64,000 nucleotides of DNA from a virus, in the IMG/VR virus record IMGVR_UViG_3300035661_000009, positions 32,001 to 96,000 of that record; one strand, given 5' to 3'. Below are positions 35,101 through 61,805 of the stretch, piece after piece (position 1 is the stretch's first letter; every line of letters starts with the position of its first letter). Below the pieces are notes generated by a model that ran no database searches, was not told where the DNA came from, and saw nothing but the letters and a program-made list of their open reading frames with translations. The translations under genes were made by a program, and so were the position numbers.

Positions 35101-35979
35101 ATGCCTAGATATAAAAATATAAGAAAACCGAAGATTGAAACAAAGCAAGAAGCAAGCTCTAAGCCTAAGACCCTAGAAGAGACATCAAAACTAAGAAAGC
35201 AAATTGAACACGCACAAATTGAACACGCGAAGCAACAACTAGGTTCTAGATTAGATATGACCGCAGAAGAAGCTATTGAAAGCATTGTAAAAAATGAAGA
35301 ATCGCTTACTTGGGAAGATTGTGCAGACTTAGATTCGCCGGTTACTATAAGTAACCTCAAGGCCAGAAATACCTTAGGTAGAATAGACTTATTGACAGGC
35401 ATGGCAAAATCCGAAGAGTTAAGTGTAGTGCTTTCTAAACAATTTAAAGAACAAAAAGATATTAACGCCGCCTTAACGCTTCAACTAGAAGATGCTAGAG
35501 AAAACTTACGAGTTGAAGATCTAACTGTGGAAAGCTTAGAGACGGCTTTAATCGAATTTTCTGACGAAAATGTAAGATTAGAAAACATACTTCAATCAAT
35601 CGACTCCTGGCTAGATGAGCGCTCAACAGGCCTAGCTAGAATAGACGAAAATAGAACCGAAGAGCAAAAAGCAAAGCAACAGCACGATTTAATCAATACA
35701 GTTAAAGATGTGTTTAGCGAGTTAATACTGGCCCATGCCGATATTACATTATTAAAAGATCAATTAAAAACTCATCAAACTATTTGCGAAGGCGGCGATT
35801 TAATAAATGAAATGTTAAATAAAAGGATTAAAAATCTTGAAAATGATAATGAATTAATAGATGCGCAAAAACAAGCAAGAACTCTAAAAAAGGCTTTAAA
35901 AACTATTATAAAAAATAAAGGCGTTTGGCGAGTTGGCGACCTTATGGATTTAAACGATTTACTAAAAGGATTAGAATAA
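35101..35979 (+). CDS. Coiled-coil hypothetical protein
   Basis: 292 aa, heptad-rich. Confidence 0.75.
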   Translation: MPRYKNIRKPKIETKQEASSKPKTLEETSKLRKQIEHAQIEHAKQQLGSRLDMTAEEAIESIVKNEESLTWEDCADLDSPVTISNLKARNTLGRIDLLTGMAKSEELSVVLSKQFKEQKDINAALTLQLEDARENLRVEDLTVESLETALIEFSDENVRLENILQSIDSWLDERSTGLARIDENRTEEQKAKQQHDLINTVKDVFSELILAHADITLLKDQLKTHQTICEGGDLINEMLNKRIKNLENDNELIDAQKQARTLKKALKTIIKNKGVWRVGDLMDLNDLLKGLE

Positions 35980-36539
35980 TGACCAGTTTGAAGCTACCGA
36001 AAGATAGAAACCTATTTTTTACGAGACAAGTAACCCAAGATAGCATTGCAACTTTAACTAAAGAGCTTTTAGATATAGAAACAAACGATATTGAACTAAA
36101 GAAGCAATATGCTTATCATGAACTCACCTACACACCAAAACCGATTAATTTGTTTATAGATAGTTTTGGAGGAAGTGTATACCAAGGATTTGGAGTTATT
36201 GGCGTAATGGAGAAGCTAACTACACCCATTACTACGATAGTTACGGGGTGCGCAATGTCTTGCGGCTTTCTTATGGCAATGCATGGAAACCACAGGTTAG
36301 CATACAAACACTCGACGTTAATGTTTCATCAAATCTCTTCTGGGGTTTGGGGGAAGCTAAATGATATGGAGGCCGACGTAGAAGAAGCCAAGAGACTACA
36401 AAAGATTATCTTCAAAATGACCCTTAAGAAGACTAAGATAAGCAAAGAAACTCTTGAAAAGAACTATAAACGTAAAATTGACTGGTTTATGCCAGCAGAA
36501 GAAGCGTTGAAAAATGGCGTAATAGATGGAATAATATGA
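35979..36539 (+). CDS. clpP: Second ClpP-like protease
   Basis: PINLFIDSFGGSV, GCAMSCG (Ser), LMFHQ (His), DWFMPAEEALKNGVID. Confidence 0.88.
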   Translation: MTSLKLPKDRNLFFTRQVTQDSIATLTKELLDIETNDIELKKQYAYHELTYTPKPINLFIDSFGGSVYQGFGVIGVMEKLTTPITTIVTGCAMSCGFLMAMHGNHRLAYKHSTLMFHQISSGVWGKLNDMEADVEEAKRLQKIIFKMTLKKTKISKETLEKNYKRKIDWFMPAEEALKNGVIDGII

Positions 36540-38607: not shown

Positions 38608-39003
38608 ATGATAATATTTACATCAAAACCTCATTATGCCAGGAATAAAACCCAAATTCAATACATCGGGAGCGGCAATAGTTTTGTAGAAACCGCCATG
38701 GCCCGGTCCTTTCCAAGCACCTATATTCAAGGAACCCGGCCTCTCGACATATTATGTGCGACGTGTAACCAAAAGACCGAAAAGGCGCCATATTGCTCAA
38801 ACCCATTCCATTTAACCCATAATTTATTTATCAATAACGGTTCAGGCTTCGACGCACCGAATGTACCGAATGTACCGAATGTACCGAACGCACCGAATGT
38901 ATGGACGATGAGTGTATTGAAATATGCCCCCGATTTCTTCTATACGGCCATTATAGCGACGATCGACGACTGGACCGGTAGTAGCACCGTAAGTGGGTAT
39001 TAA
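38608..39003 (+). CDS. Hypothetical protein with NVP repeat
   Basis: ORF; last gene of the + arm. Confidence 0.5.
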   Translation: MIIFTSKPHYARNKTQIQYIGSGNSFVETAMARSFPSTYIQGTRPLDILCATCNQKTEKAPYCSNPFHLTHNLFINNGSGFDAPNVPNVPNVPNAPNVWTMSVLKYAPDFFYTAIIATIDDWTGSSTVSGY

Positions 39004-39436
39004 GGGGTATTAAGGGGTATTAAGGGGTATTAAGGGGTACGCGGTTTATCAAATTTTATCAAATTTTTGGGAATTTTGGGATTTTTTATTAAAATTTTTT
39101 ATTTTTAGGTACCATACCGACCATACCGACCATACCGACGCCCTATATTCCCGGTTATACTTATTATAATGTGTGGGTGTGGGTGTGGGTGTGGGTGTGG
39201 GTGTAGGTGTGGGAGTAAGTGGTGATATAAAGGCTTAATTTTTGGGAAATTTTTTTGGGTTGGTGTATCTCTGGGATAAATAGACCCTTCAGTTAGATTG
39301 TATACATAGTTTACATGGTTCGCATATTGTAAGGGGTGGGTCAATATACCCCACCCCTATTGACAATTCGATCAATCGTCAGAATTGAAAAGAGCAGGAA
39401 TGACGATTGAGGCAATACAGGCGATCACGAGGTAGA

Positions 39437-39643
39437 TCACTCGTCCTCTGACGTATCGATTTCCAGAGCGCCGTCACCTGCGATCGAAATGATGCGGGTA
39501 GGCGGAATGCCCATGGCCGCACCGATCTCCGTCTTCCGCCGATCATCGCCATCCTTCAGCCACGCCGAGATCTTCCGACGCTGATCAGGGGTGAGATCCT
39601 TCATTCCTGCCTTGCCGTTGAAGTCGCCAGAGAAATCAGCCAT
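39437..39643 (-). CDS. Hypothetical protein (GC-rich island)
   Basis: AAGGA SD, upstream promoter, GC3-rich codons. Confidence 0.75.
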   Translation of the reverse strand: MADFSGDFNGKAGMKDLTPDQRRKISAWLKDGDDRRKTEIGAAMGIPPTRIISIAGDGALEIDTSEDE

Positions 39644-39702
39644 TGGGTTCGTCCTTTAGTTGAGGGTTGGTTGAGGGTTGGTTGAGGGTTGGGTCTTTCA
39701 GT

Positions 39703-39742
39703 GCTGCCTCTCATTTATACAGGAATGAGAGGCAGCTTTCAA
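39703..39742 (-). promoter_or_regulatory. Promoter TTGAAA-N17-TATAAA overlapped by a 13-bp inverted repeat
   Basis: GCTGCCTCTCATT (39703-39715) / AATGAGAGGCAGC (39724-39736). Confidence 0.6.
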
Positions 39743-39771
39743 GCGCCAAATCCGATTATTCGATTATTCGA

Positions 39772-40104
39772 TTATTCGACGGAAGACGGCATGAAGAGAG
39801 CCACGGCCGTTTCCAGATCCTTGACCCGTTGCGTCAGCGCTTCGACTGCAGCCATGACTGCCATGGCCTTTGCCAGCGCGTTGGAGTCGACCGGGGGCGT
39901 GGGCGCGACCCCCGTCACCGAGTGGGCGTCCTTGCCGTCGCTCGACTGTCTTGATACCCATGGTGATGGGCGCGGGTGCGCTTCACCTTCGCTGAAATGC
40001 CACGCCCCGGTTCCCCGAGCGTAGAAGATCGGATCGCCGACCTTGATTGGGGCACCAGTCTTTGCGGAAGTCGAATTCAGCTTGGAAATCATGAGCTTTG
40101 CCAT
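39772..40104 (-). CDS. Hypothetical protein (GC-rich island)
   Basis: AAGGA SD, upstream promoter, GC3-rich codons. Confidence 0.7.
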   Translation of the reverse strand: MAKLMISKLNSTSAKTGAPIKVGDPIFYARGTGAWHFSEGEAHPRPSPWVSRQSSDGKDAHSVTGVAPTPPVDSNALAKAMAVMAAVEALTQRVKDLETAVALFMPSSVE

Positions 40105-40158
40105 GGCGTCTATTCCTTTGCGGGTGAACTACAACTACCACTACCACTGCAACTAGAC

Positions 40159-40187
40159 ATCCTACAGAATCAGGGAGCGAATTGCAA
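40159..40187 (-). promoter_or_regulatory. Promoter TTGCAA-N17-TAGGAT
   Basis: Matches the promoter family; -35 overlaps a 12-bp inverted repeat. Confidence 0.6.
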
Positions 40188-40266
40188 CCCCTAGACGTTT
40201 ATTTCTAGGGGTTGCTTTCAACCCTTGACCCTTGCCCTTGATTGTCGTCGATTAGGCCAGCGTCGA

Positions 40267-40497
40267 TTAGGCCAGCGCATTCAGCAGAGCGGCCGTGTCG
40301 ACCGGCGCCGAACCGTCGAGGCTCGCCCGGAACTTGTCCGCTTCGGCGCCGGTCAGCAGCACGGTCACCGAGTGGGCGTCCTTGCCGTCGCTCGACTGGC
40401 CGGTGGGGGTGACCTTCAGCAGATACGACCCGCCCGCGTTCACCAGCGAAACCGAAACCTCAGCGCGGCGGTTGCCCTTCATGATCTTGATACCCAT
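40267..40497 (-). CDS. Hypothetical protein (GC-rich island)
   Basis: AGGAG SD, GC3-rich codons. Confidence 0.75.
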   Translation of the reverse strand: MGIKIMKGNRRAEVSVSLVNAGGSYLLKVTPTGQSSDGKDAHSVTVLLTGAEADKFRASLDGSAPVDTAALLNALA

Positions 40498-40541
40498 GGT
40501 GATTCTCCTGTACTTCGTTGACTGCGTTTGACTGCGTTTGA

Positions 40542-40737
40542 CTGCGTGCTGCCTGCTCAGTATCTCATGCCTTGATGCTGCCGTCTACACCCCTTCGATT
40601 CTTTTTTTGGGGTCTGCGCACCGTAGGGAAACCTTCTCCCTCTCTCCCTGCCCGCCCACCTCGCCCCGGTGTTTGCTGCGTGCTGCGCGCTGCGTGCTGC
40701 GTGCTGCCTGCTCAGTATCTCATGCCTTGATGCTGCC
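40542..40737. repeat. 41-bp direct repeat (40542-40582, 40697-40737), probably tandem promoters on the - strand
   Basis: CTGCGTGCTGCCTGCTCAGTATCTCATGCCTTGATGCTGCC occurs twice; reads TAGACG/TTGCAG-N17-GATACT on -. Confidence 0.75.
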
Positions 40738-40804
40738 TGCAAGCGCCGATCGTCGTTTTCGTCGTTTTCTTTCGACGCTTAATCGCCATGACCTAGGGTT
40801 GCGT

Positions 40805-40858
40805 GGCAGTATTTGGCAGTATTTGGCAGTATTTGGCAGTATTTGGCAGTATTTGGCA
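40805..40858. repeat. 10-bp tandem repeat GGCAGTATTT x5
   Basis: Direct reading. Confidence 0.9.
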
Positions 40859-41161
40859 ACACTTGTTACATAAGCCTACATAAGCCTTTACATAATTCCA
40901 CTAGGGAGAAAACACTAAATTGCATTTACAAATAGCTAAGTCTTTGATATCATTAGATGTGGGTAATTGACTACATCATAATTAGTACAGAAGTATGAAC
41001 ATTTTACACCTAGGAAATATGTCTTTAAAGCTTCTTGACAAATGTATAATCTTCTTACTTAGCTAAAGTATTGATTTTATTAGTTTGTATAGTTTGTATA
41101 GTTCGCAACTAGTTTGTATCTTTTGCTTACAAACAGTGCTTTATCCCTATACAAATAATTG

Positions 41162-41549: not shown

Positions 41550-41720
41550 TTAATTACTCTGACTACCACTATAACTATAACTAACACTACCACTATAACT
41601 AACACTACCACTAACACTACCACTATTACTACCACTACCACTAAGACTACTACGCCAAAGCTTTATATACCAAGGTATTGGAGGGTAATATCTAGTAAGT
41701 CTCATAATTCTAGTTTTCAT
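41550..41720 (-). CDS. (SX)n peptide, 56 aa (not in ORF track)
   Basis: MKTRIMRLTRYYPPIPWYIKLWRSSLSGSGSNS...SQSN. Confidence 0.75.
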   Translation of the reverse strand: MKTRIMRLTRYYPPIPWYIKLWRSSLSGSGSNSGSVSGSVSYSGSVSYSYSGSQSN

Positions 41721-41744
41721 GATATTGGTTAGTTATTTATTTAG

Positions 41745-41999
41745 CTAATTACTCTTACTACCACTACCACTATTACTAACACTATTACTACCACTATTAC
41801 TAAAACTAACACTATAACTACCGCTATAACTACCGCTAAAACCATAACTACGACTACCACTACTACTATAACTAACACTACCGCTACCACTACGACTATA
41901 ACTATTACTACTACGCCAATGCTTCAAATACCAAGGTATTGAAGGATATGGTCTAGTAAGCCTAGTAAGTCTGGTATGTCTAGTTTTCATGGTTTTCAT
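41745..41999 (-). CDS. (SX)n peptide
   Basis: Conserved leader + SX core. Confidence 0.75.
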   Translation of the reverse strand: MKTMKTRHTRLTRLTRPYPSIPWYLKHWRSSNSYSRSGSGSVSYSSSGSRSYGFSGSYSGSYSVSFSNSGSNSVSNSGSGSKSN

Positions 42000-42018
42000 G
42001 GTATTGGATAGTTATTAG

Positions 42019-42258
42019 TTATTTACTCTGACTACCACTACCACTAAGACTATCACTACCACTACCACTAAGATTACCACTACCACTAACACTATAACTA
42101 CCGCTAAAACCATAACTAAAACTACCACTATTACTATGACTACCACCAAAACTGCCACTACCACTAAGACTACCACTACTACGCCAATACTTTATATACC
42201 AAGGTATTGGAGGATAACGTCTAGTAAGCCTAGTAAGTCTGGTATGTCTAGTTTTCAT
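42019..42258 (-). CDS. (SX)n peptide
   Basis: Conserved leader + SX core. Confidence 0.75.
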   Translation of the reverse strand: MKTRHTRLTRLTRRYPPIPWYIKYWRSSGSLSGSGSFGGSHSNSGSFSYGFSGSYSVSGSGNLSGSGSDSLSGSGSQSK

Positions 42259-42278
42259 GGTTTTAATTAGTTATTTAG

Positions 42279-42497
42279 CTATTTACTCTGACTACCACTA
42301 CCACTATTACTAACGCTACCACTATTACTAACGCTACCACTACTACCACTATAACTACGACTACCACTATAACTATTACTATAACTATAATTACCACTAA
42401 CACTATAACTAACACTATTACGCCAATGCTTCAAATACCAAGGTATCGAAGGATGACATCTGGTAAGTCTAGTATATCTGGTAAGTCTAGTTTTCAT
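42279..42497 (-). CDS. (SX)n peptide
   Basis: Conserved leader + SX core. Confidence 0.75.
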   Translation of the reverse strand: MKTRLTRYTRLTRCHPSIPWYLKHWRNSVSYSVSGNYSYSNSYSGSRSYSGSSGSVSNSGSVSNSGSGSQSK

Positions 42498-42528
42498 GGT
42501 ATTGGTTAGTTATTGGTTAGTTATTTAG

Positions 42529-42816
42529 CTATTTACTCTGACTACCGCTATAACTATTACTACCACTAAAACTATTACTACCACTAAAACTATAACTACC
42601 ACTACCACTAAGACTACCACTAAGACTACCACTCTGATTACCACTCTGATTACCACTACTACTATAACTAACACTACCACTAACACTACCACTATTACTA
42701 CCACTACCACTACTACTACCATGCCAAAACTTCATATACCAAGGTATTGGAGGATAATTTCTAACTACTCTGGTAATTCTAGTAAGCCTAGTATATCTGG
42801 TAAGTCTGGTTTTCAT
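42529..42816 (-). CDS. (SX)n peptide
   Basis: Conserved leader + SX core. Confidence 0.75.
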   Translation of the reverse strand: MKTRLTRYTRLTRITRVVRNYPPIPWYMKFWHGSSSGSGSNSGSVSGSVSYSSSGNQSGNQSGSLSGSLSGSGSYSFSGSNSFSGSNSYSGSQSK

Positions 42817-42836
42817 GGTATTGGTTAGTTATTTAG

Positions 42837-43130
42837 CTATTTACTCTGACTACCACTATAACTACGACTACCGCTATCACTAAGACTACCACTATAACTA
42901 CCACTATAACTACGACTACCACTAAACCTATCACTACCACTACGACTACCACCAAGACTATAACTATAATTACCACTAAGACTATAACTATAATTACCGC
43001 TAACACTATAACCACCACTACCACTACCACTATAACTACTAGTACGCCAAAACTTCAAATACCAAGGTATTGGAGGATGATTTCTAACTACTCTAGTAAG
43101 TCTAGTAAGTCTGGTATGTCTAGTTTTCAT
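42837..43130 (-). CDS. (SX)n peptide
   Basis: Conserved leader + SX core. Confidence 0.75.
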   Translation of the reverse strand: MKTRHTRLTRLTRVVRNHPPIPWYLKFWRTSSYSGSGSGGYSVSGNYSYSLSGNYSYSLGGSRSGSDRFSGSRSYSGSYSGSLSDSGSRSYSGSQSK

Positions 43131-43153
43131 GGTTTTAATTAGTTATTAGATAG

Positions 43154-43408
43154 TTATTTACTACTACCACTACCACTACGACTATAACTATCACGACCAC
43201 TACCACTATAACTAACATTATAGCTATCACTACCACTATAACCACCACCACTATCACTATCACTATAACTATCACGACCACTACCACTACCACTAACACT
43301 AGAATTACCACTACCACTATAACTACTACTACGCCAAAGCTTCAAATACCAAGGTATCGAAGGGTAATATCTAACTACTCTAGTAAGTCTAGTTTTCATG
43401 GTTTTCAT
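43154..43408 (-). CDS. (SX)n peptide
   Basis: Conserved leader + SX core. Confidence 0.75.
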   Translation of the reverse strand: MKTMKTRLTRVVRYYPSIPWYLKLWRSSSYSGSGNSSVSGSGSGRDSYSDSDSGGGYSGSDSYNVSYSGSGRDSYSRSGSGSSK

Positions 43409-43432
43409 GGTATTGGTTAGTTATTTATTTAG

Positions 43433-43470
43433 CTAATTACTCTGACTACCACTACCACCAAAACCACTTA
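43433..43470 (-). pseudogene. 3' remnant of an array copy (SGFGGSGSQSN*) lacking the leader
   Basis: Tail sequence only, fused to unrelated DNA downstream of an internal promoter. Confidence 0.55.
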
Positions 43471-43570
43471 TTTTGTTCCCAATGTTTCTTGATTGGTTTC
43501 GGTTTCCATAAAATGGCCATTATAAAGGCCACAATTGGCTTATGAGAGCCATTGACCCCGACCGCTCCCC

Positions 43571-43600
43571 ACCCTAGCACACTGGCGCGCGTGCCGTCAA
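43571..43600 (-). promoter_or_regulatory. Promoter TTGACG-N18-TAGGGT inside the array
   Basis: Member of the repeated promoter family. Confidence 0.7.
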
Positions 43601-43708
43601 GGGGTTAGAGAGCCTGCTAGGATTAAATTTATTGAGGTAAGGGCTTGACAAGTTATCGATTAAATGAAATAACCCACGCCCCTCACAGACATATTTTTAC
43701 ATTTCGTA

Positions 43709-43975
43709 TTAGCTACCAGCACCAAAACTAGTACCAAAACTACCACTACCCCTACGACTAGCACCAAAACTACCACTACCACTAAAACTAGCACCAAAAC
43801 TAGCACCAAAACTAGCACCAAAACTATAACTACCACTAAGACTACCAGTAAGACTACCACTACCACTATAACTAATACTACCATTACCACCGATACCACT
43901 ACCACTAAGACTACGCCAATAGCTTAAATGTCTAGGTATTGGAGGATACGGTCTAACTACTCTATTGATTTTCAT
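43709..43975 (-). CDS. Divergent (SX)n peptide with SFGA repeats
   Basis: Leader MKINRVVRPYPPIPRHLSYWRS. Confidence 0.7.
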   Translation of the reverse strand: MKINRVVRPYPPIPRHLSYWRSLSGSGIGGNGSISYSGSGSLTGSLSGSYSFGASFGASFGASFSGSGSFGASRRGSGSFGTSFGAGS

Positions 43976-44002
43976 GGTATTAATTAGTTATTAGTTATTT
44001 AG

Positions 44003-44245
44003 CTAATTACTCTTACTACCACTATAACTACGACTATTACTATTACTACGACTACCACTATAACTACGACTACCACTATTACTATTACTAAGACTACCAC
44101 TATAACTACGACTACCACTATAACTAAGACTAACACTATAACTAAGACTACCACTACTACTATAACTAGGCCAATAGCTTAAATACCAAGGTATTGAAGG
44201 ATACTGTCTGGTAAGTCTGGTAAATCTAGTAAGTCTAGTTTTCAT
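44003..44245 (-). CDS. (SX)n peptide
   Basis: Start reset to the conserved MKTR ATG at 44245. Confidence 0.75.
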   Translation of the reverse strand: MKTRLTRFTRLTRQYPSIPWYLSYWPSYSSSGSLSYSVSLSYSGSRSYSGSLSNSNSGSRSYSGSRSNSNSRSYSGSKSN

Positions 44246-44298
44246 GATATTGGTTAATGCTATTTTCGCTATTATTTGTGATCTTAACAACTAATAAC

Positions 44299-44550
44299 CT
44301 AATTATCACCATAACTATAACTACCACTATAACTAAGACTAACACTAAGACTAACACTAAGACTACCACTAACACTACCACTATAATTACCACTAAGACT
44401 ATAATTACCACTAAGACTATCACCAAAACTACCACTAAAACTATCACCAAAACTACCGCTACCACTACCACTATTACTACCACTATAACTACGCAAATAT
44501 CTTTTGGACCAAGGTCTTGGAGGATGATTTCTGGTAAGTCTAGTTTTCAT
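44299..44550 (-). CDS. (SX)n peptide
   Basis: Leader variant PWSKRYLRS + SX core. Confidence 0.75.
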   Translation of the reverse strand: MKTRLTRNHPPRPWSKRYLRSYSGSNSGSGSGSFGDSFSGSFGDSLSGNYSLSGNYSGSVSGSLSVSLSVSLSYSGSYSYGDN

Positions 44551-44565
44551 GATATTAATTAGTTA

Positions 44566-44826
44566 TTAGTATTTACCCTGACTACCACTATAACTACGAC
44601 TATAACTACCACTACTACTAAAACTACCGCTACTACTAAAACTACCACTATGACTACCACTATAACTACGACTAAAACTACCGCTATCACTAAGACTACC
44701 ACTACGACTATAACTAAGACTACCACTACTACTATAACTACGCCAATAGCTTAAATACCAAGGTATTGAAGGATAATTCCTTGTAAGTCTAGTAAGTCTA
44801 GTATATCTGGTAAGTCTAGTTTTCAT
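44566..44826 (-). CDS. (SX)n peptide
   Basis: Conserved leader + SX core. Confidence 0.75.
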   Translation of the reverse strand: MKTRLTRYTRLTRLTRNYPSIPWYLSYWRSYSSSGSLSYSRSGSLSDSGSFSRSYSGSHSGSFSSSGSFSSSGSYSRSYSGSQGKY

Positions 44827-44858
44827 GGTATTGGTTAGTTATTTATTTAGTTATTTAG

Positions 44859-45095
44859 CTAATTACCCTTACTACCGCTACCGCTACCACTATAACTATA
44901 GCTACCACTAACACTACCGCTACGACTACCGCTAAGACTATAACTAAAACTATAACTACCACTAACACTATAACTACCACTATAACTACTACTATAACTA
45001 CTACTATAACTACTACCATGCCAAAACTTTTTATACCAAGGTATCGAAGGATGATTTCTAACTACTCTGGTAAGTCTAGTTTTCATGGTTTTCAT
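44859..45095 (-). CDS. (SX)n peptide
   Basis: Conserved leader + SX core. Confidence 0.75.
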   Translation of the reverse strand: MKTMKTRLTRVVRNHPSIPWYKKFWHGSSYSSSYSSSYSGSYSVSGSYSFSYSLSGSRSGSVSGSYSYSGSGSGSKGN

Positions 45096-45114
45096 GATAT
45101 TGGTTAGTTATTAG

Positions 45115-45372
45115 TTAATTACCCTGACTACCACTAAGACTATAACCAGTACTACGACTAACACTATAACTAAGACTACTACTAAGACTAGTACTAAGAC
45201 TACCACTATCACTAACACTACCGCTATAACTAACACTAAAACTATCACTACCACTAAAACTATAATTACCACTATAATTATAACTAAGACTACGACTATA
45301 ACTACGCCAATAGCTTAAATACCAAGGTATCGAAGGATAATGTCTGGTAAGTCTAGTGAGTCTAGTTTTCAT
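45115..45372 (-). CDS. (SX)n peptide
   Basis: Conserved leader + SX core. Confidence 0.75.
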   Translation of the reverse strand: MKTRLTRLTRHYPSIPWYLSYWRSYSRSLSYNYSGNYSFSGSDSFSVSYSGSVSDSGSLSTSLSSSLSYSVSRSTGYSLSGSQGN

Positions 45373-45387
45373 GATATTAATTAGTTA

Positions 45388-45654
45388 TTAGTATTTACCC
45401 TGACTACCACTATTACTAAAACTACCACTATTACTAAAACTACCACTATTACTAAAACTACCACTATAACTAACACTACCGCTATGACTACCACTATAAC
45501 TAAGACTAACACTAAGACTACCACTAAGACTACCGCTACCACTATAACTAACACTATAATTATCACTATTACTACTACGCCAAAACTTTATATACCAAGG
45601 TCTTGAAGGATATGGTCTAACTACTCTAGTGAGTCTAGTAAATCTAGTTTTCAT
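45388..45654 (-). CDS. (SX)n peptide
   Basis: Conserved leader + SX core. Confidence 0.75.
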   Translation of the reverse strand: MKTRFTRLTRVVRPYPSRPWYIKFWRSSNSDNYSVSYSGSGSLSGSLSVSLSYSGSHSGSVSYSGSFSNSGSFSNSGSFSNSGSQGKY

Positions 45655-45698
45655 GGTATTGGATAGTTATTTATTTAGTTATTTATTTAGTTATTTAG

Positions 45699-45980
45699 TT
45701 ATTTACTCTGACTACCACTAAAACTAAGACTAAAACTAAGACTATCACTAACACTACCGCTACCACTATTATTACGACTACCACTATTACTACCACTATT
45801 ACTACCACTATTACTACCACTATAACTAAGACTACCGCTATAACTACGATTATAACTACCACTACCACTAACACTAAACCTATAACTAAGACTACTACTA
45901 AGACTACTAGTATGCCAAAACTTCAAATACCAAGGTATTGGAGGATGATGTCTGGTAAGTCTCATAATTCTGGTTTTCAT
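45699..45980 (-). CDS. (SX)n peptide
   Basis: Conserved leader + SX core. Confidence 0.75.
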   Translation of the reverse strand: MKTRIMRLTRHHPPIPWYLKFWHTSSLSSSLSYRFSVSGSGSYNRSYSGSLSYSGSNSGSNSGSNSGSRNNSGSGSVSDSLSFSLSFSGSQSK

Positions 45981-46012
45981 GGTATTGGATAGTTATTTAT
46001 TTAGCTAATTAG

Positions 46013-46231
46013 CTAATTACCCTTACTACCACTATAACTAAAACTATAATTACCAGTACCACTATAACTATAACTACCACTAACACTATGACCACCACCA
46101 CTATAACTAACACTATTACTAACACTATTACTAACACTATAACTACCGCTACCACTATAACTACTACTACGCCAAAGCTTTATATACCAAGGTATCGAAG
46201 GATAATGTCTAACAATTCTATTGGGTTTCAT
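46013..46231 (-). CDS. (SX)n peptide
   Basis: Start reset to the MKPNR ATG at 46231. Confidence 0.75.
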   Translation of the reverse strand: MKPNRIVRHYPSIPWYIKLWRSSSYSGSGSYSVSNSVSNSVSYSGGGHSVSGSYSYSGTGNYSFSYSGSKGN

Positions 46232-46284
46232 TGTATTGGTTAATGCTATTTTCGCTATTATTTGCGATCTTAACAACTAATAAC

Positions 46285-46563
46285 CTAATTATCGCCATAA
46301 CTACCACTACCGCTACCACTACCGCTAATACTAAGACTATAACTACCGCTACCACTAAAACTACCGCTACCACTAAAACTACCGCTACCACTATCGCTAT
46401 AACTATCACTAACACTACGACTATAACTACTACTACCACTATCACTACCACTATAACTACCACTACCACTACTACTAAAACTACCGCTACCACTACTACT
46501 ACGCCAAAACTTCATATACCAAGGTATTGGAGGATAATTTCTAACTACTCTATTGGTTTTCAT
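46285..46563 (-). CDS. (SX)n peptide
   Basis: Conserved leader + SX core. Confidence 0.75.
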   Translation of the reverse strand: MKTNRVVRNYPPIPWYMKFWRSSSGSGSFSSSGSGSYSGSDSGSSSYSRSVSDSYSDSGSGSFSGSGSFSGSGSYSLSISGSGSGSGSYGDN

Positions 46564-46575
46564 GGTATTGGTTAG

Positions 46576-46800
46576 TTATTTACTCTGACTACCACTACGA
46601 CTAACACTATAACTACGACTACCACTAACACTACCACTATCACTATAACTAAGACTATAACTAGCACTAACACTACCACTAACACTAGCACTACGACTAC
46701 GACTACCACTATCACTAAGACTACTACTATGCCAAAACTTTATGGGCCAAGGTATTGAAGGATATGGTCTAACTACTCTGGCAACTTTATTGGGTTTCAT
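46576..46800 (-). CDS. (SX)n peptide
   Basis: Leader variant MKPNKVARVVR + SX core. Confidence 0.75.
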   Translation of the reverse strand: MKPNKVARVVRPYPSIPWPIKFWHSSSLSDSGSRSRSASVSGSVSASYSLSYSDSGSVSGSRSYSVSRSGSQSK

Positions 46801-46850
46801 AGTTTCATAGTTTTATGTGTTTATGTGTTTTATGGATTTTGTAAACACAA

Positions 46851-46883
46851 ATAGCCACTACAACAATTAGCTGTAGTGGCTAT
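46851..46883 (-). terminator. Intrinsic terminator-like hairpin after the Sm-like gene
   Basis: ATAGCCACTACA/TGTAGTGGCTAT 12-bp stem followed on - by TTGTGTTT. Confidence 0.65.
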
Positions 46884-46932
46884 CAGCTTGCGACTTAATG
46901 CTTGTTACTTAATGCTTGTTACTTATTACTTA

Positions 46933-47214
46933 TTACTTCATTCGGTGAAGGACGGTGCCACCACGATCAATAATCATTTCTTCGGCGCCTTCATGCTTTT
47001 CCACGCGCTTGCCCTTGCCAGCGTAGAAATCCTTGTAATTGCCGGTTTCATAAACCGTGGCAGTATCCTTAAAAACGAAAACAGTTCCGGTCAGGGCAAC
47101 CAGCGTACCAATATACTGATACGTAGGAGTGCGGATATGATACTTCGCACCCTCAACAAAAATACCCATCTGGAGTTCACTATCAGCAACAACATCACGC
47201 ATTTCGTTGGACAT
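46933..47214 (-). CDS. Small beta protein, putative Sm/LSm-like fold
   Basis: GAKYHIRT-PTYQYIGTLVAL-TGTVFVFKDT (Sm1-like) and EMIIDRGGTV (Sm2-like); the only non-repeat gene identified in the array; higher GC3 than flanks. Confidence 0.6.
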   Translation of the reverse strand: MSNEMRDVVADSELQMGIFVEGAKYHIRTPTYQYIGTLVALTGTVFVFKDTATVYETGNYKDFYAGKGKRVEKHEGAEEMIIDRGGTVLHRMK

Positions 47215-47257
47215 ATTTTCTTTCGGGTTAAGAGTGAAGAATTAAAGAATTAAAGGG

Positions 47258-47470
47258 TTATTTACTCTGACTACCACTACGACTATAACTAGAACTACGA
47301 CTACCACTACCGCTACTACTACCACTAAACCTATCACTACCACTAAAACTAAGACTAAAACTACTACTACCACTATCACTAACACTAAGACTACCGCTAC
47401 GCCAAAACTTCAAATACCAAGGTATCGAAGGATGATTTCTAACTACTTTGGCAACTTTATTGGGTTTCAT
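47258..47470 (-). CDS. (SX)n peptide upstream of the Sm-like gene
   Basis: Leader MKPNKVAKVVRNHPSIPWYLKFWRS + SX core. Confidence 0.75.
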   Translation of the reverse strand: MKPNKVAKVVRNHPSIPWYLKFWRSGSLSVSDSGSSSFSLSFSGSDRFSGSSSGSGSRSSSYSRSGSQSK

Positions 47471-47595
47471 GGGCTAATTTGCCTAATTGATGATATAATT
47501 CAATGCCTGATTTACGCTCTTTTCAAGGTCAGAACCCATTGCTTTATTGCCTCGTTTGCGGACTACTTAGAGGGTTGGGGTGTGCGACCTGCCTC

Positions 47596-47624
47596 ACCCT
47601 ATCACGGGCGATCTGTAGCGTCAA
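47596..47624 (-). promoter_or_regulatory. Promoter TTGACG-N17-TAGGGT
   Basis: Repeated promoter family; points at the peptide + Sm-like pair. Confidence 0.75.
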
Positions 47625-47880
47625 GCGACCGTCAAGCGACCGTCAAGCGACCGACGACGGTCAAGCGGTTGCGGTTATATACAGCGACATTGGCCAATAA
47701 TTGTTACGTTTCCCATACCCATTTCATGGCAACGCTTATTACAAATATCCTGTGAAGCGGAATAATGATAAATGCTCCAAAGAAAGGCAGACGAGAACGA
47801 AACGAGCACGGTCAAACAAATAACACCAAAAATCTTCATATCAAGCCTTTTCAGTTAAATTAAAGAGTTAAATTAAAGAG

Positions 47881-48102
47881 TTAATCATCCTGACTACCAC
47901 TAAGACTATTACTACCACTAAAACTACCGCTATAACTATCACTATAACTAAGACTATCACTACCACTATCGCTAACACTAAGACTATCACTACCGCTATA
48001 ACTAAGACTATCACTACGACTACCACTATAACTACGCAAATATCTTTTGGACCAAGGTATTGAAGGATAATGTCTGGTAAGTCTGGTATGTCTAGTTTTC
48101 AT
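47881..48102 (-). CDS. (SX)n peptide (SD-rich)
   Basis: Leader variant PWSKRYLRS + SX core. Confidence 0.75.
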   Translation of the reverse strand: MKTRHTRLTRHYPSIPWSKRYLRSYSGSRSDSLSYSGSDSLSVSDSGSDSLSYSDSYSGSFSGSNSLSGSQDD

Positions 48103-48123
48103 GATATTGGTTAGTTATTTACT

Positions 48124-48354
48124 CTAACTACTACGACTACCGCTACCACTAAAACCATAACTATAATTACCACTAAAACTATAATTACCGCTATCGCTAA
48201 CACTATCACTATCACTACCACTATAACTAAGACTAACACTATCACTACCACTATGACTAACAGTATAACTATCACTATCACTACTACGCCAATACTTTAT
48301 ATACCAAGGTCTTGGAGGATGATTTCTAGTAAGTCTAGTAAGTCTAGTTTTCAT
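48124..48354 (-). CDS. (SX)n peptide
   Basis: Conserved leader + SX core. Confidence 0.75.
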   Translation of the reverse strand: MKTRLTRLTRNHPPRPWYIKYWRSSDSDSYTVSHSGSDSVSLSYSGSDSDSVSDSGNYSFSGNYSYGFSGSGSRSS

Positions 48355-48387
48355 GGTATTGGATAGTTATTTAGTTATTTATTTACT

Positions 48388-48630
48388 CTAACTACTACGA
48401 CTACCACTACCACTATAATTACCACTATAATTACCACTATAATTACCACCAAAACTACCACTATCACTATCACTATCACTAACACTAAGACTACCGCTAT
48501 AACTACCACTATTACTAAAACTACCGCTACCGCTACAACTACTACGCCAATACTTCAAATACCAAGGTCTTGGAGGATGATTTCTAACTACTCTGGTAAG
48601 CCTGGTAAGTCTAGTAAGTCTAGTTTTCAT
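48388..48630 (-). CDS. (SX)n peptide
   Basis: Conserved leader + SX core. Confidence 0.75.
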   Translation of the reverse strand: MKTRLTRLTRLTRVVRNHPPRPWYLKYWRSSCSGSGSFSNSGSYSGSLSVSDSDSDSGSFGGNYSGNYSGNYSGSGSRSS

Positions 48631-48663
48631 GGTATTGGATAGTTATTTAGTTATTTATTTACT

Positions 48664-61136: not shown

Positions 61137-61394
61137 TTAATTACCACTACTGCCACTAACACTATAACTGCCACTAACACTATAACTACCACTCTGACTA
61201 CTACTACTACTATAACTACTGCCACTAACACTATAACTACCACTAAAACTATAACTAACACTACCACTAACACTAAAACTATCTCTATCACTACCACTAT
61301 AACTATAATTACCACTACGCCAATGCTTCAAATACCAAGGTATTGGAGGATAATTTCTAACTACTCTAGTATGACTAGTAAGTCTAGTTTTCAT
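61137..61394 (-). CDS. (SX)n peptide, satellite copy
   Basis: Same leader and core as the main array. Confidence 0.75.
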   Translation of the reverse strand: MKTRLTSHTRVVRNYPPIPWYLKHWRSGNYSYSGSDRDSFSVSGSVSYSFSGSYSVSGSSYSSSSSQSGSYSVSGSYSVSGSSGN

Positions 61395-61404
61395 AATTAC
61401 TTAT

Positions 61405-61695
61405 TTAATTACCACTACTGCCACTAACACTATAACTACCACTATAACTACTACCACCAAAACTACTACCACTATAACTACCACTATTACTAACACCATT
61501 ACTGACACTACCACTACCACTATAACTACGACTACGACTACCGCTACCACTATAACTACTACCACCAAAACTACCACTACCACTACCACTAAGACTACCA
61601 CTATAACTATTACTACTACGCCAATGCTTCAAATACCAAAGTATTGAAGGATGACATCTGGTAAGTCTGGTAAGTCTGGTAAGTCTAGTTTTCAT
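61405..61695 (-). CDS. (SX)n peptide, satellite copy
   Basis: Same leader and core as the main array. Confidence 0.75.
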   Translation of the reverse strand: MKTRLTRLTRLTRCHPSILWYLKHWRSSNSYSGSLSGSGSGSFGGSSYSGSGSRSRSYSGSGSVSNGVSNSGSYSGSSFGGSSYSGSYSVSGSSGN

Positions 61696-61708
61696 GAATT
61701 TGATTAAT

Positions 61709-61805
61709 AGACATGTAGGAATCGAACCTACCTCTCCAAAGTTTCACCAGAACTTCATAGGAATCGAACCTATCTTCTAAGATATCACCAGATTTTATAA
61801 TGTCC
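61709..61805 (-). ncRNA. tRNA-like RNA with two T-arms and no anticodon arm
   Basis: GGACAT...ATGTCT closing stem; ATAGG-TTCGATT-CCTAT and GTAGG-TTCGATT-CCTAC, each preceded by a CTGGTGA loop. Confidence 0.6.

Follow-up and report, generated by a model that had tools for sequence, protein, structure and literature searches.

A predicted Sm/LSm-fold gene inside a phage array of Ser-X peptide genes, and its pairing with such genes in other phages

Why does a single gene for a small globular protein lie inside a long array of genes for serine-repeat peptides, and does their association go beyond position? The question is raised by a 64,000-nucleotide stretch of viral DNA (the window), bases 32001-96000 of the IMG/VR phage record IMGVR_UViG_3300035661_000009, which measures 160,015 bp and is 99% complete according to CheckV. 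On the minus strand of the window a tandem array of 23 head-to-tail peptide genes, each encoding a leader followed by a (Ser-X)n body, extends from 41550 to 48885 and encloses a cassette of two genes: one for a 70-aa peptide of the array type (47258-47470) and one for a 93-aa protein, P0001 (46933-47214). Both open reading frames (ORFs) are as described in an earlier note on this DNA, which proposed an Sm-like fold for the 93-aa protein and an ancestral two-gene cassette whose peptide partner had been amplified about 25-fold. Our analysis leads to a similar description: that P0001 belongs to an Sm-fold family, that this family shows a conserved and often coupled pairing with a disordered peptide made of a leader and a (Ser-X)n body, and that the peptide is amplified in this phage, we regard as very probable.

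The fold of P0001 was approached by structure prediction. With the family alignment as input, AlphaFold2 (AF2) gives a confident model (predicted local distance difference test, pLDDT, 90.2; predicted template modelling score, pTM, 0.79), in which an N-terminal helix (residues 3-16) is followed by bent strands at residues 24-28, 33-41, 45-56, 80-83 and 88-91, with an insert (residues 57-79, a short helix and a strand) between beta3 and beta4. Nearly all of the top 50 Foldseek matches in the PDB are Sm/LSm or SmAP chains, with template modelling (TM) scores by target of 0.64-0.75. The VIA search, which is independent of Foldseek, gives Z values of 8.5 (6ppv_A, root-mean-square deviation 2.0 over 66 aa), 8.2, 8.1 and 8.1 to Lsm and archaeal SmAP proteins, and almost all of its first 32 rows have the Sm/LSm fold (Sm, LSm, SmAP, the LSm domain of EDC3, and Naa38 of NatC); the Hfq chains come below LSm and SmAP, at Z 5.6-6.0. 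An Atlas shape search returned phage clusters of 59-281 members without a common Pfam family, together with one archaeal LSM cluster. Because the model is confident and the structural matches agree with each other, we accept the Sm/LSm fold of P0001 as predicted, which supports the guess of the earlier note.

At the sequence level the family is small, and its members come from phage-like contigs. An exhaustive HMMER search of 1.84 billion representatives retrieved 24 relatives at E<=1e-3, almost all of about 100 aa, and a word search gave five closer ones; the long multi-stretch matches P0020, P0021 and P0026 were rejected as members, since they look like unrelated repeat proteins. P0001 matches nothing in Pfam, NCBIfam or PADLOC, and a profile search of PDB sequences and comparisons with 50,697 phage records by tblastn and megablast were likewise negative; PHROG yields only a marginal match (phrog_36261, E 0.021, function unknown), and one family member weakly matches DUF2642 (E 0.0064). 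The PADLOC profiles of anti-phage defence and counter-defence match neither the Sm-like protein nor the peptide, nor a 54-aa ORF and a paralogue described below. The likeness to both Sm1 and Sm2 motifs that had been read in the sequence holds for the second only: an Sm2-like '[IV][IV]DRGG' stretch (IIDRGG in P0001) with a nearly invariant R84 is the sole recognisable classical motif, and the Sm1 Asp/Asn signature is not evident in the family alignment. The members are mostly mildly acidic (isoelectric point, pI, about 5-6.4). Two of them, P0015 and P0029, contain a tandem pair of Sm-like domains within one chain, and at one locus (L016, 96-690) two Sm-like genes follow each other, which hints that the domain works as an oligomer. 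No longer fused form of the Sm-like protein was found when searched for.

Is the neighbourhood of the Sm-like gene and a Ser-X peptide gene peculiar to this phage? The genomic contexts of the homologues, taken from Logan, ENA, JGI and IMG/VR assemblies, make up 14 independent loci, and at nine of them the Sm-like gene has a Ser-X peptide gene as its immediate same-strand neighbour, either before or after it and often with a stop/start overlap. Under a stricter criterion, requiring at least six consecutive S-x pairs ((S.)6+) within 400 nt of the Sm-like gene, six of the 14 loci score in the near-gene DNA (9.5 kb in total) versus none in 53 kb of same-strand flanks. The assemblies thus bear out what the earlier note had said of other phages, where similar small proteins would lie next to one SR/SW/GS-rich peptide gene. 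The peptide gene is upstream in L006 (8-nt overlap, start MRIARALVWPWSWSQSWSGSGS...) and in L007/L008 (start MGLRLTRPVLASWSRSRSKSWSGS...). It is downstream in L001 (start MRTSRAVHPSPRSRSRG...), L002 (start MRLSRTLVL, the contig ending after 9 codons) and L009/L010 (start MRLVRTVPTAHW...), each through an ATGA overlap, as well as in L012 through a GTGA overlap (start VVRLTRTVVTARSRSRSGSGS...), in L013, where a GTG start lies 2 nt past the TAA stop (start VRLARAVIFEGAMSWSWSGLRSGSG...), and in L020, where the start overlaps the Sm-like stop (...SRSWSWSWSRSGSWS...) and the Sm-like protein is 29% identical to P0001. L015 has two downstream peptide genes in tandem, starting MRLTRQVV... and MRLTRHVV...; at this locus (502-975 and 972-1551) the homologue, P0007, carries a C-terminal Leu-Asp-rich repeat extension (DLDVKELDLDVKEPDLDVKK...) and is followed by the two peptide genes.

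The linked phages share essentially nothing with the genome studied here besides the Sm-like gene, and span GC contents of 0.40 to 0.65, so that the pair travels as a module. The peptides of the different phages have a common leader motif, M-R-[LI]-x-R-x-V, extended in the present phage to ...VVRNHPSIPWYLKFWRS, and one leader Arg is invariant across all 31 aligned peptides. A literature search found no publication on a phage module that combines an Sm-like protein and a dipeptide-repeat peptide.

In the present phage the peptides have three parts: a basic aromatic leader, a Ser-X body of 33-71 residues and a short tail such as GSQSK. The leader takes the form MKT(RLTR)n or MKPNKVA..VVR, then xYPSIPWYLKFWRS; it is strongly basic (net +2.6 to +8.6), and the pI of the peptides is mostly 9-11. 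In the body about every second residue is Ser. The cores (S 47%, G 18.5%, Y 8.7%) are near neutral, rich in Ser, Gly and Tyr rather than Arg, without Cys, and the triplets S-Y-S and G-Y-S are common in them. For the 70-aa peptide of the cassette, whose basic leader MKPNKVAKVVRNHPSIPWYLKFWRS precedes the Ser-X core, AF2 gives a pLDDT of 68-78 in the leader and below 50 in the core, and the body is predicted to be disordered. A protein search with this peptide matched only itself. A scan of IMG/VR for the leader DNA (CCTYCRATACCTTGGTAT) gave 8 matches, which are most likely due to chance because none has a leader with Ser-X context.

Two more genes of the same family lie on the minus strand at 61137-61692, 13 kb from the array, and bring the peptide genes of the phage to 25, which agrees with the number estimated in the earlier note. 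Read along the minus strand, the array consists of four peptide genes (48885-47881), a 410-nt gap, the cassette, then 18 peptide genes interrupted by one gap of 288 nt (43421-43708); both gaps are unique sequence. The spacers between peptide genes are AT-rich, about 10-30 nt long, and devoid of Shine-Dalgarno-like sequences. The first gene of the array (48664-48885, MRIVRNHPSIPWY...) has the leader form nearest to that of the relatives. The peptide genes on both sides of the Sm-like gene, i.e. that of the cassette and the first one past a terminator-like hairpin (46576-46800, minus strand), are each other's closest paralogues (71% identity, common MKPNKVA-VVR leader subtype), and they occupy the same two positions, upstream and downstream, as the peptide gene in other phages. 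As the relatives carry one or two peptide genes and the flanking copies are this similar, the data fit an ancestral two-gene unit whose peptide partner was amplified to 25 copies, as the earlier note had supposed on the sequence alone. It is by its scale that this window stands out as new: a single Sm-like gene has around it 25 peptide genes, whose leader is aromatic and unusually long.

Two observations can be added on the layout of the peptide genes. A longer spacer is present in two copies (44246-44290 and 46232-46276), translating as LLRSQIIAKIALTN, each after a peptide gene ending SY(S)YGDN/SYGDN; blocks of several genes, besides single genes, were thus duplicated within the array. The more distal of the two outlying genes (61405-61743, minus strand) starts right after a tRNA T-arm-like sequence (GGTTCGATTCC), which is part of a tRNA-like element at 61709-61805.

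At which level is the repeat maintained? Of the several frames that stay open through the repeats, that of Ser-X is the only one in which start, leader and stop are conserved, and it is also in this frame that the stop/start overlaps with the Sm-like gene occur in the relatives. The Val-rich and Thr-rich alternative frames, without conserved start and leader, were rejected as coding. Ser is encoded by AGT in 625 of 694 cases in this phage, where 79% of the codons have T at the third position, and by TCG, TCT or TCA in the relatives. These two families of Ser codons do not interconvert by single synonymous steps. Given this and the lack of a common RNA repeat, the conserved feature is the alternating Ser in the protein; to judge from these codon patterns, it is selected at the protein level and not as an RNA motif. 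The codon uniformity of the array, for its part, fits growth by slippage of an AGT-GGT-type hexamer. The X residues track the composition of the genome, with W, R or G in the GC-rich phages and G, Y, N, F, L or V here, a pattern typical of a loosely constrained disordered segment.

How might the two partners work together? The explanation that we prefer, and which as a whole we find only just probable, is that the cassette represents a two-gene module conserved among phages, whose peptide partner has been amplified here, and that the Sm-like protein forms a ring with detachable tails. Tandem duplication, duplication of blocks and slippage of hexamers would have multiplied the peptide genes, and the Sm-like gene would have stayed single inside the array. 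The Sm-like protein would self-assemble into a ring, which is usual for the fold and in line with the existence of the tandem-domain relatives P0015 and P0029; the ring would dock the conserved basic leader of the peptides, and the Ser/Gly/Tyr bodies would act in trans as detachable low-complexity tails, like RG/RGG or Gly-rich tails. The earlier note had proposed the Sm-like protein as a putative receptor for this leader or for the repeat RNA. Such tails might tune RNA binding or ribonucleoprotein (RNP) assembly during infection, with 25 interchangeable ones at the disposal of this phage. This mechanism taken by itself—self-assembly, docking of the leader, and Ser-X bodies that modulate RNA handling as tails in trans—draws on analogy with known Sm proteins and is put forward tentatively, as a possibility that may well prove wrong. 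A more elaborate form of it, in which the Sm-like ring would be the hub of a combinatorial RNP scaffold, recruiting 25 FUS-like tails through one leader into a phase-separated compartment for RNA processing or protection, seems unlikely to us. A complex prediction of the Sm-like protein with residues 1-40 of its cognate peptide scored 0.00; it was run without controls and counts neither way.

Several findings weigh against this explanation. At E<=1 the LSM profile (PF01423) is matched by none of 23 family members, the Hfq profile (PF17209) has no match in the Pfam and NCBIfam searches, and the Hfq-type Sm2 motif (YKHAI) is absent; with these profiles unmatched and only the Sm2-like motif recognisable, the predicted membership of P0001 in the Sm/LSm group is at the fold level only. 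The canonical uridine pocket of Sm loop 3 is formed by Asn and aromatic residues. According to the alignment and the predicted strands, the loop that would correspond to it in P0001 ('LTGTV') has neither, so that canonical RNA binding is not assured. Many Sm-fold domains, moreover, bind proteins instead of RNA, and EDC3, LSm14, Naa38 and Gemin6/7 are all present in the VIA matches. The linkage itself is incomplete: no Ser-X gene is adjacent at L003, the locus of the closest homologue (72% identity), at L011, at L016, or at L017, whose type matches the genome's own paralogue; L014 is ambiguous, and the paralogue in this genome is likewise without a Ser-X neighbour. In the array, the hairpin divides the Sm-like gene from 18 of the 25 peptide genes, and the translational coupling found in most relatives is missing. 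Finally, the ratio of nonsynonymous to synonymous changes (dN/dS) is about 0.8 among the 25 paralogous leaders, whose third positions show no surplus of changes; this fits recent amplification, concerted evolution or relaxed selection, and gives no independent proof of purifying selection on the leader.

Some of these points would also suit an unrelated small gene that simply happens to lie inside a repeat array: the spacers and the hairpin set the Sm-like gene apart, and both L003 and the genome's own paralogue lack a Ser-X neighbour. A chance neighbourhood is nevertheless very improbable in view of the adjacency at nine of the 14 loci, in otherwise unrelated phages, in both orders and with stop/start overlaps. 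If the association is real, the target of the Sm-like protein could be the repeat RNA instead of the peptides: it would bind the hexamer repeats for autoregulation, as a scaffold or for protection, the peptides being secondary. Sm and Hfq proteins bind short repeated RNA motifs, the distal face of Hfq binding A-R-N triplets, a pattern that AGU fits; the extreme codon uniformity (AGT for 90% of Ser, T at 79% of third positions) and the repeats open in several frames go in the same direction. However, the repeat unit varies between phages, AGU-NNU here and UCG-NGG or similar in the relatives, with the alternating Ser being kept, and this switch of Ser codon family speaks against the idea that the target is an RNA repeat common to the phages. 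Besides, start, leader, stop and the stop/start overlaps are conserved in the Ser-X frame, no Rfam family is matched in 46800-47900, and no fold signal is seen (z -0.18) in the GC-richer gap of 210 nt that precedes the cassette. We therefore give little credit to an RNA-level function.

The pair could also be read as an effector and its keeper, the basic repeat peptides being the active part, through nucleic acid condensation or perturbation of the host, and the Sm-like protein chaperoning or neutralising them. The opposite charges of the basic leaders and peptides and of the mildly acidic Sm-like family speak for this, as does the tight translational coupling in the relatives, which resembles that of stoichiometric pairs. 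Yet toxicity is without support, the cores are here near neutral and made of Ser, Gly and Tyr rather than Arg, and one Sm-like gene for 25 peptide genes would be a poor stoichiometry for a neutraliser; such a function appears improbable. Hardly better placed is a library of precursors like those of ribosomally synthesized and post-translationally modified peptides (RiPPs), whose Ser-rich cores would be modified by enzymes from other loci (dehydration, cyclodehydration, glycosylation or phosphorylation), the Sm-like protein serving as leader-recognition or chaperone subunit. A conserved leader with hypervariable cores in 25 copies is what one would expect of it; the Sm fold is able to bind short peptide motifs, EDC3 and LSm14 being among the VIA matches; and a glutamine amidotransferase-like ORF lies near the Sm-like paralogue, with Amidoligase_2 and GATase genes within about 1.5 kb of this paralogue type in the related contigs L017-L019. 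On the other hand no gene for a modifying enzyme recurs beside the pair in other phages, the array has no enzyme families, there is neither an RRE-type (RiPP recognition element) domain nor Cys in the cores, the X residues follow genome GC as in a loose disordered segment and not as in a defined core, and it is precisely the amidoligase-adjacent paralogue that has no peptide gene beside it. We consider the RiPP-like reading unlikely, and retain the two-gene module with trans-acting tails as the preferred one.

The comparison with known systems helps to place this module. Low-complexity tails are carried by several Sm/LSm proteins, as RG repeats in SmD1, SmD3 and SmB, and as RGG or Q/N-rich tails in LSm4. 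P0001 resembles the eukaryotic and archaeal Sm/LSm proteins by its predicted N-terminal helix and strongly bent five-strand sheet (Z 8.1-8.5), by the Sm2-like stretch, and by having a disordered segment of dipeptide repeats associated with the Sm core; it departs from them by the insert at residues 57-79 between beta3 and beta4, by the failure to match the LSM profile, and by a repeat segment that is the product of a separate, often coupled gene and is built of Ser-X instead of Arg-Gly. Ring formation and RNA binding are putative here. Among Hfq proteins, that of Acinetobacter has a C-terminal domain of Gly-rich repeats. The P0001 family shares with Hfq an Sm fold in the bacterial and phage world (Z about 5.6-6.0) and the idea of a core with a low-complexity extension; the structural match is however weaker than with LSm and SmAP, there is no sequence match, and YKHAI is absent.

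Many ProcA precursor genes, one leader and hypervariable cores characterise the prochlorosins, of which the array is reminiscent: its small genes are numerous and paralogous, with a leader that is conserved and C-terminal parts that are hypervariable. Unlike prochlorosins, it has no recurring modifying enzyme, its Ser-X cores are without Cys, and the partner is of Sm fold and not a lanthipeptide synthetase or RRE protein. The low-complexity domains of FUS, EWS and TAF15 are of the [G/S]Y[G/S] type; the peptide cores resemble them in being rich in S, G and Y, with frequent S-Y-S and G-Y-S and predicted disorder, and differ from them by a strict two-residue periodicity and by forming very short free-standing peptides with a basic leader. 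The closest described phage proteins are GoF, MotB.1 and Frd.2 of T4, small proteins that are LSm-like only by structure prediction and suspected of a role in RNA stability (Kim et al. 2025, PMC12152347). P0001 is, like them, a small phage LSm-like protein recognised by structure prediction; it has no sequence similarity to them detectable by tblastn against the 50,697 phage records, and the abstract and headings on the T4 family mention no repeat-peptide partner gene (PMC12152347).

The cassette is read on the minus strand. Downstream, the terminator announced as a 12-bp hairpin turns out to be stronger: a fold scan finds a 15-bp stem with a 5-nt loop at 46850-46884, then a U-rich tail (UUUGUGUUU), with a centroid energy of -24 kcal/mol and a z of -3.79 versus dinucleotide shuffles, 0 of 200 of which fold equally well; only 3 sites in 8.5 kb look like terminators, and this one greatly exceeds the other two in strength. 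Between it and the Sm-like gene, a 14-bp tandem repeat in 3.3 copies (46893-46938) overlaps and follows the Sm-like stop codon. The spacer between the 70-aa peptide gene and the Sm-like gene is 43 nt long and has no terminator. Upstream, the string TTGACG-N17-TAGGGT is indeed present at 47596-47624, but as a promoter it is weak: the -10 agrees with TATAAT at 3 of 6 positions, the sigma-70 scan made no call there, and promoter-like sites in the region number 20 versus 28.8 expected from shuffles. Its TTGACG belongs to a perfect tandem repeat of 11 bp in 3.2 copies (CGTCAAGCGAC, 47619-47653), of which it forms the final unit. This repeat, the source of three TTGACG boxes, could be an operator or promoter array; the noncoding DNA around it, ahead of the cassette, is locally richer in GC.

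The Sm-like gene had been called the only non-repeat gene in 7.4 kb, which is not quite so, as a 54-aa ORF (47675-47839) and a 42-aa ORF (43452-43580) are also found on this strand. The former is a candidate gene whose product would be hydrophobic at the N-terminus and rich in Cys at the C-terminus. It is situated, together with the 11-bp repeats, in the 410-nt gap, the only long unique gap of the array; it has no family match in Pfam, PHROG or PADLOC, and no relatives in the fetched homologue loci. An element CTTTAATT, in two copies, with a purine-rich stretch precedes both this ORF and the Sm-like gene. The GC content at third codon positions (GC3) of the 93-aa gene, 0.48, is higher than that of the peptide genes (0.12), as was observed in the earlier note, but it is at the top of, and close to, the 0.27-0.47 of ten other genes of the window, and a foreign origin of the Sm-like gene on this ground was rejected.

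The divergent paralogue of P0001 (99 aa, locus L005) is encoded outside the window, at 101304-101603 of the genome, minus strand. Its subtype, P0019 (72% identical), occurs in the contigs L017-L019, with the Amidoligase_2 and GATase genes already mentioned, and its block is syntenic with contig L017. Near it in this genome are a class-II amidotransferase-like ORF (97874-99025) and a Cys-rich ORF of 406 aa (99070-100290). As to the phage itself, the nearest cultured relative found is the Myxococcus phage Mx1, with 40% identity in one protein. The window contains large structural genes at 1-34 kb and four tRNA genes at 52.7-59.4 kb, which are its sole Rfam matches. About 5 kb from the array, at 35925-36536 on the plus strand, lies a ClpP/S14-type protease-like gene (phrog_94 'head maturation protease', E 3e-32; also phrog_1827 'ATP-dependent protease'). 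Between them, at 39000-41000, the GC content rises to 50-54% in a phage of 39% GC overall; this island, which may be recently acquired DNA, contains on the minus strand a pair of paralogous ORFs (39772-40104 and 40267-40497) with the common motif SSDGKDAHSVT.

In all three domains of life Sm/LSm proteins play a central part as RNA chaperones, and those of eukaryotes often work through disordered dipeptide-repeat tails. If the preferred reading is true, an Sm core and a repeat tail encoded by two separate, often coupled genes would be a new way to build such a machine, of which this phage would represent the extreme case, one core gene with 25 different tails, and thereby a natural experiment on tail function; the 93-aa protein and synthetic leader peptides offer a tractable biochemical pair. 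The combinatorial scaffold, should it exist, would be a viral prokaryotic counterpart of the eukaryotic LSm-based P-body scaffolds. If the peptides are instead modified, or toxic effectors, what the phage encodes in the array would be a peptide library of an unusual kind.

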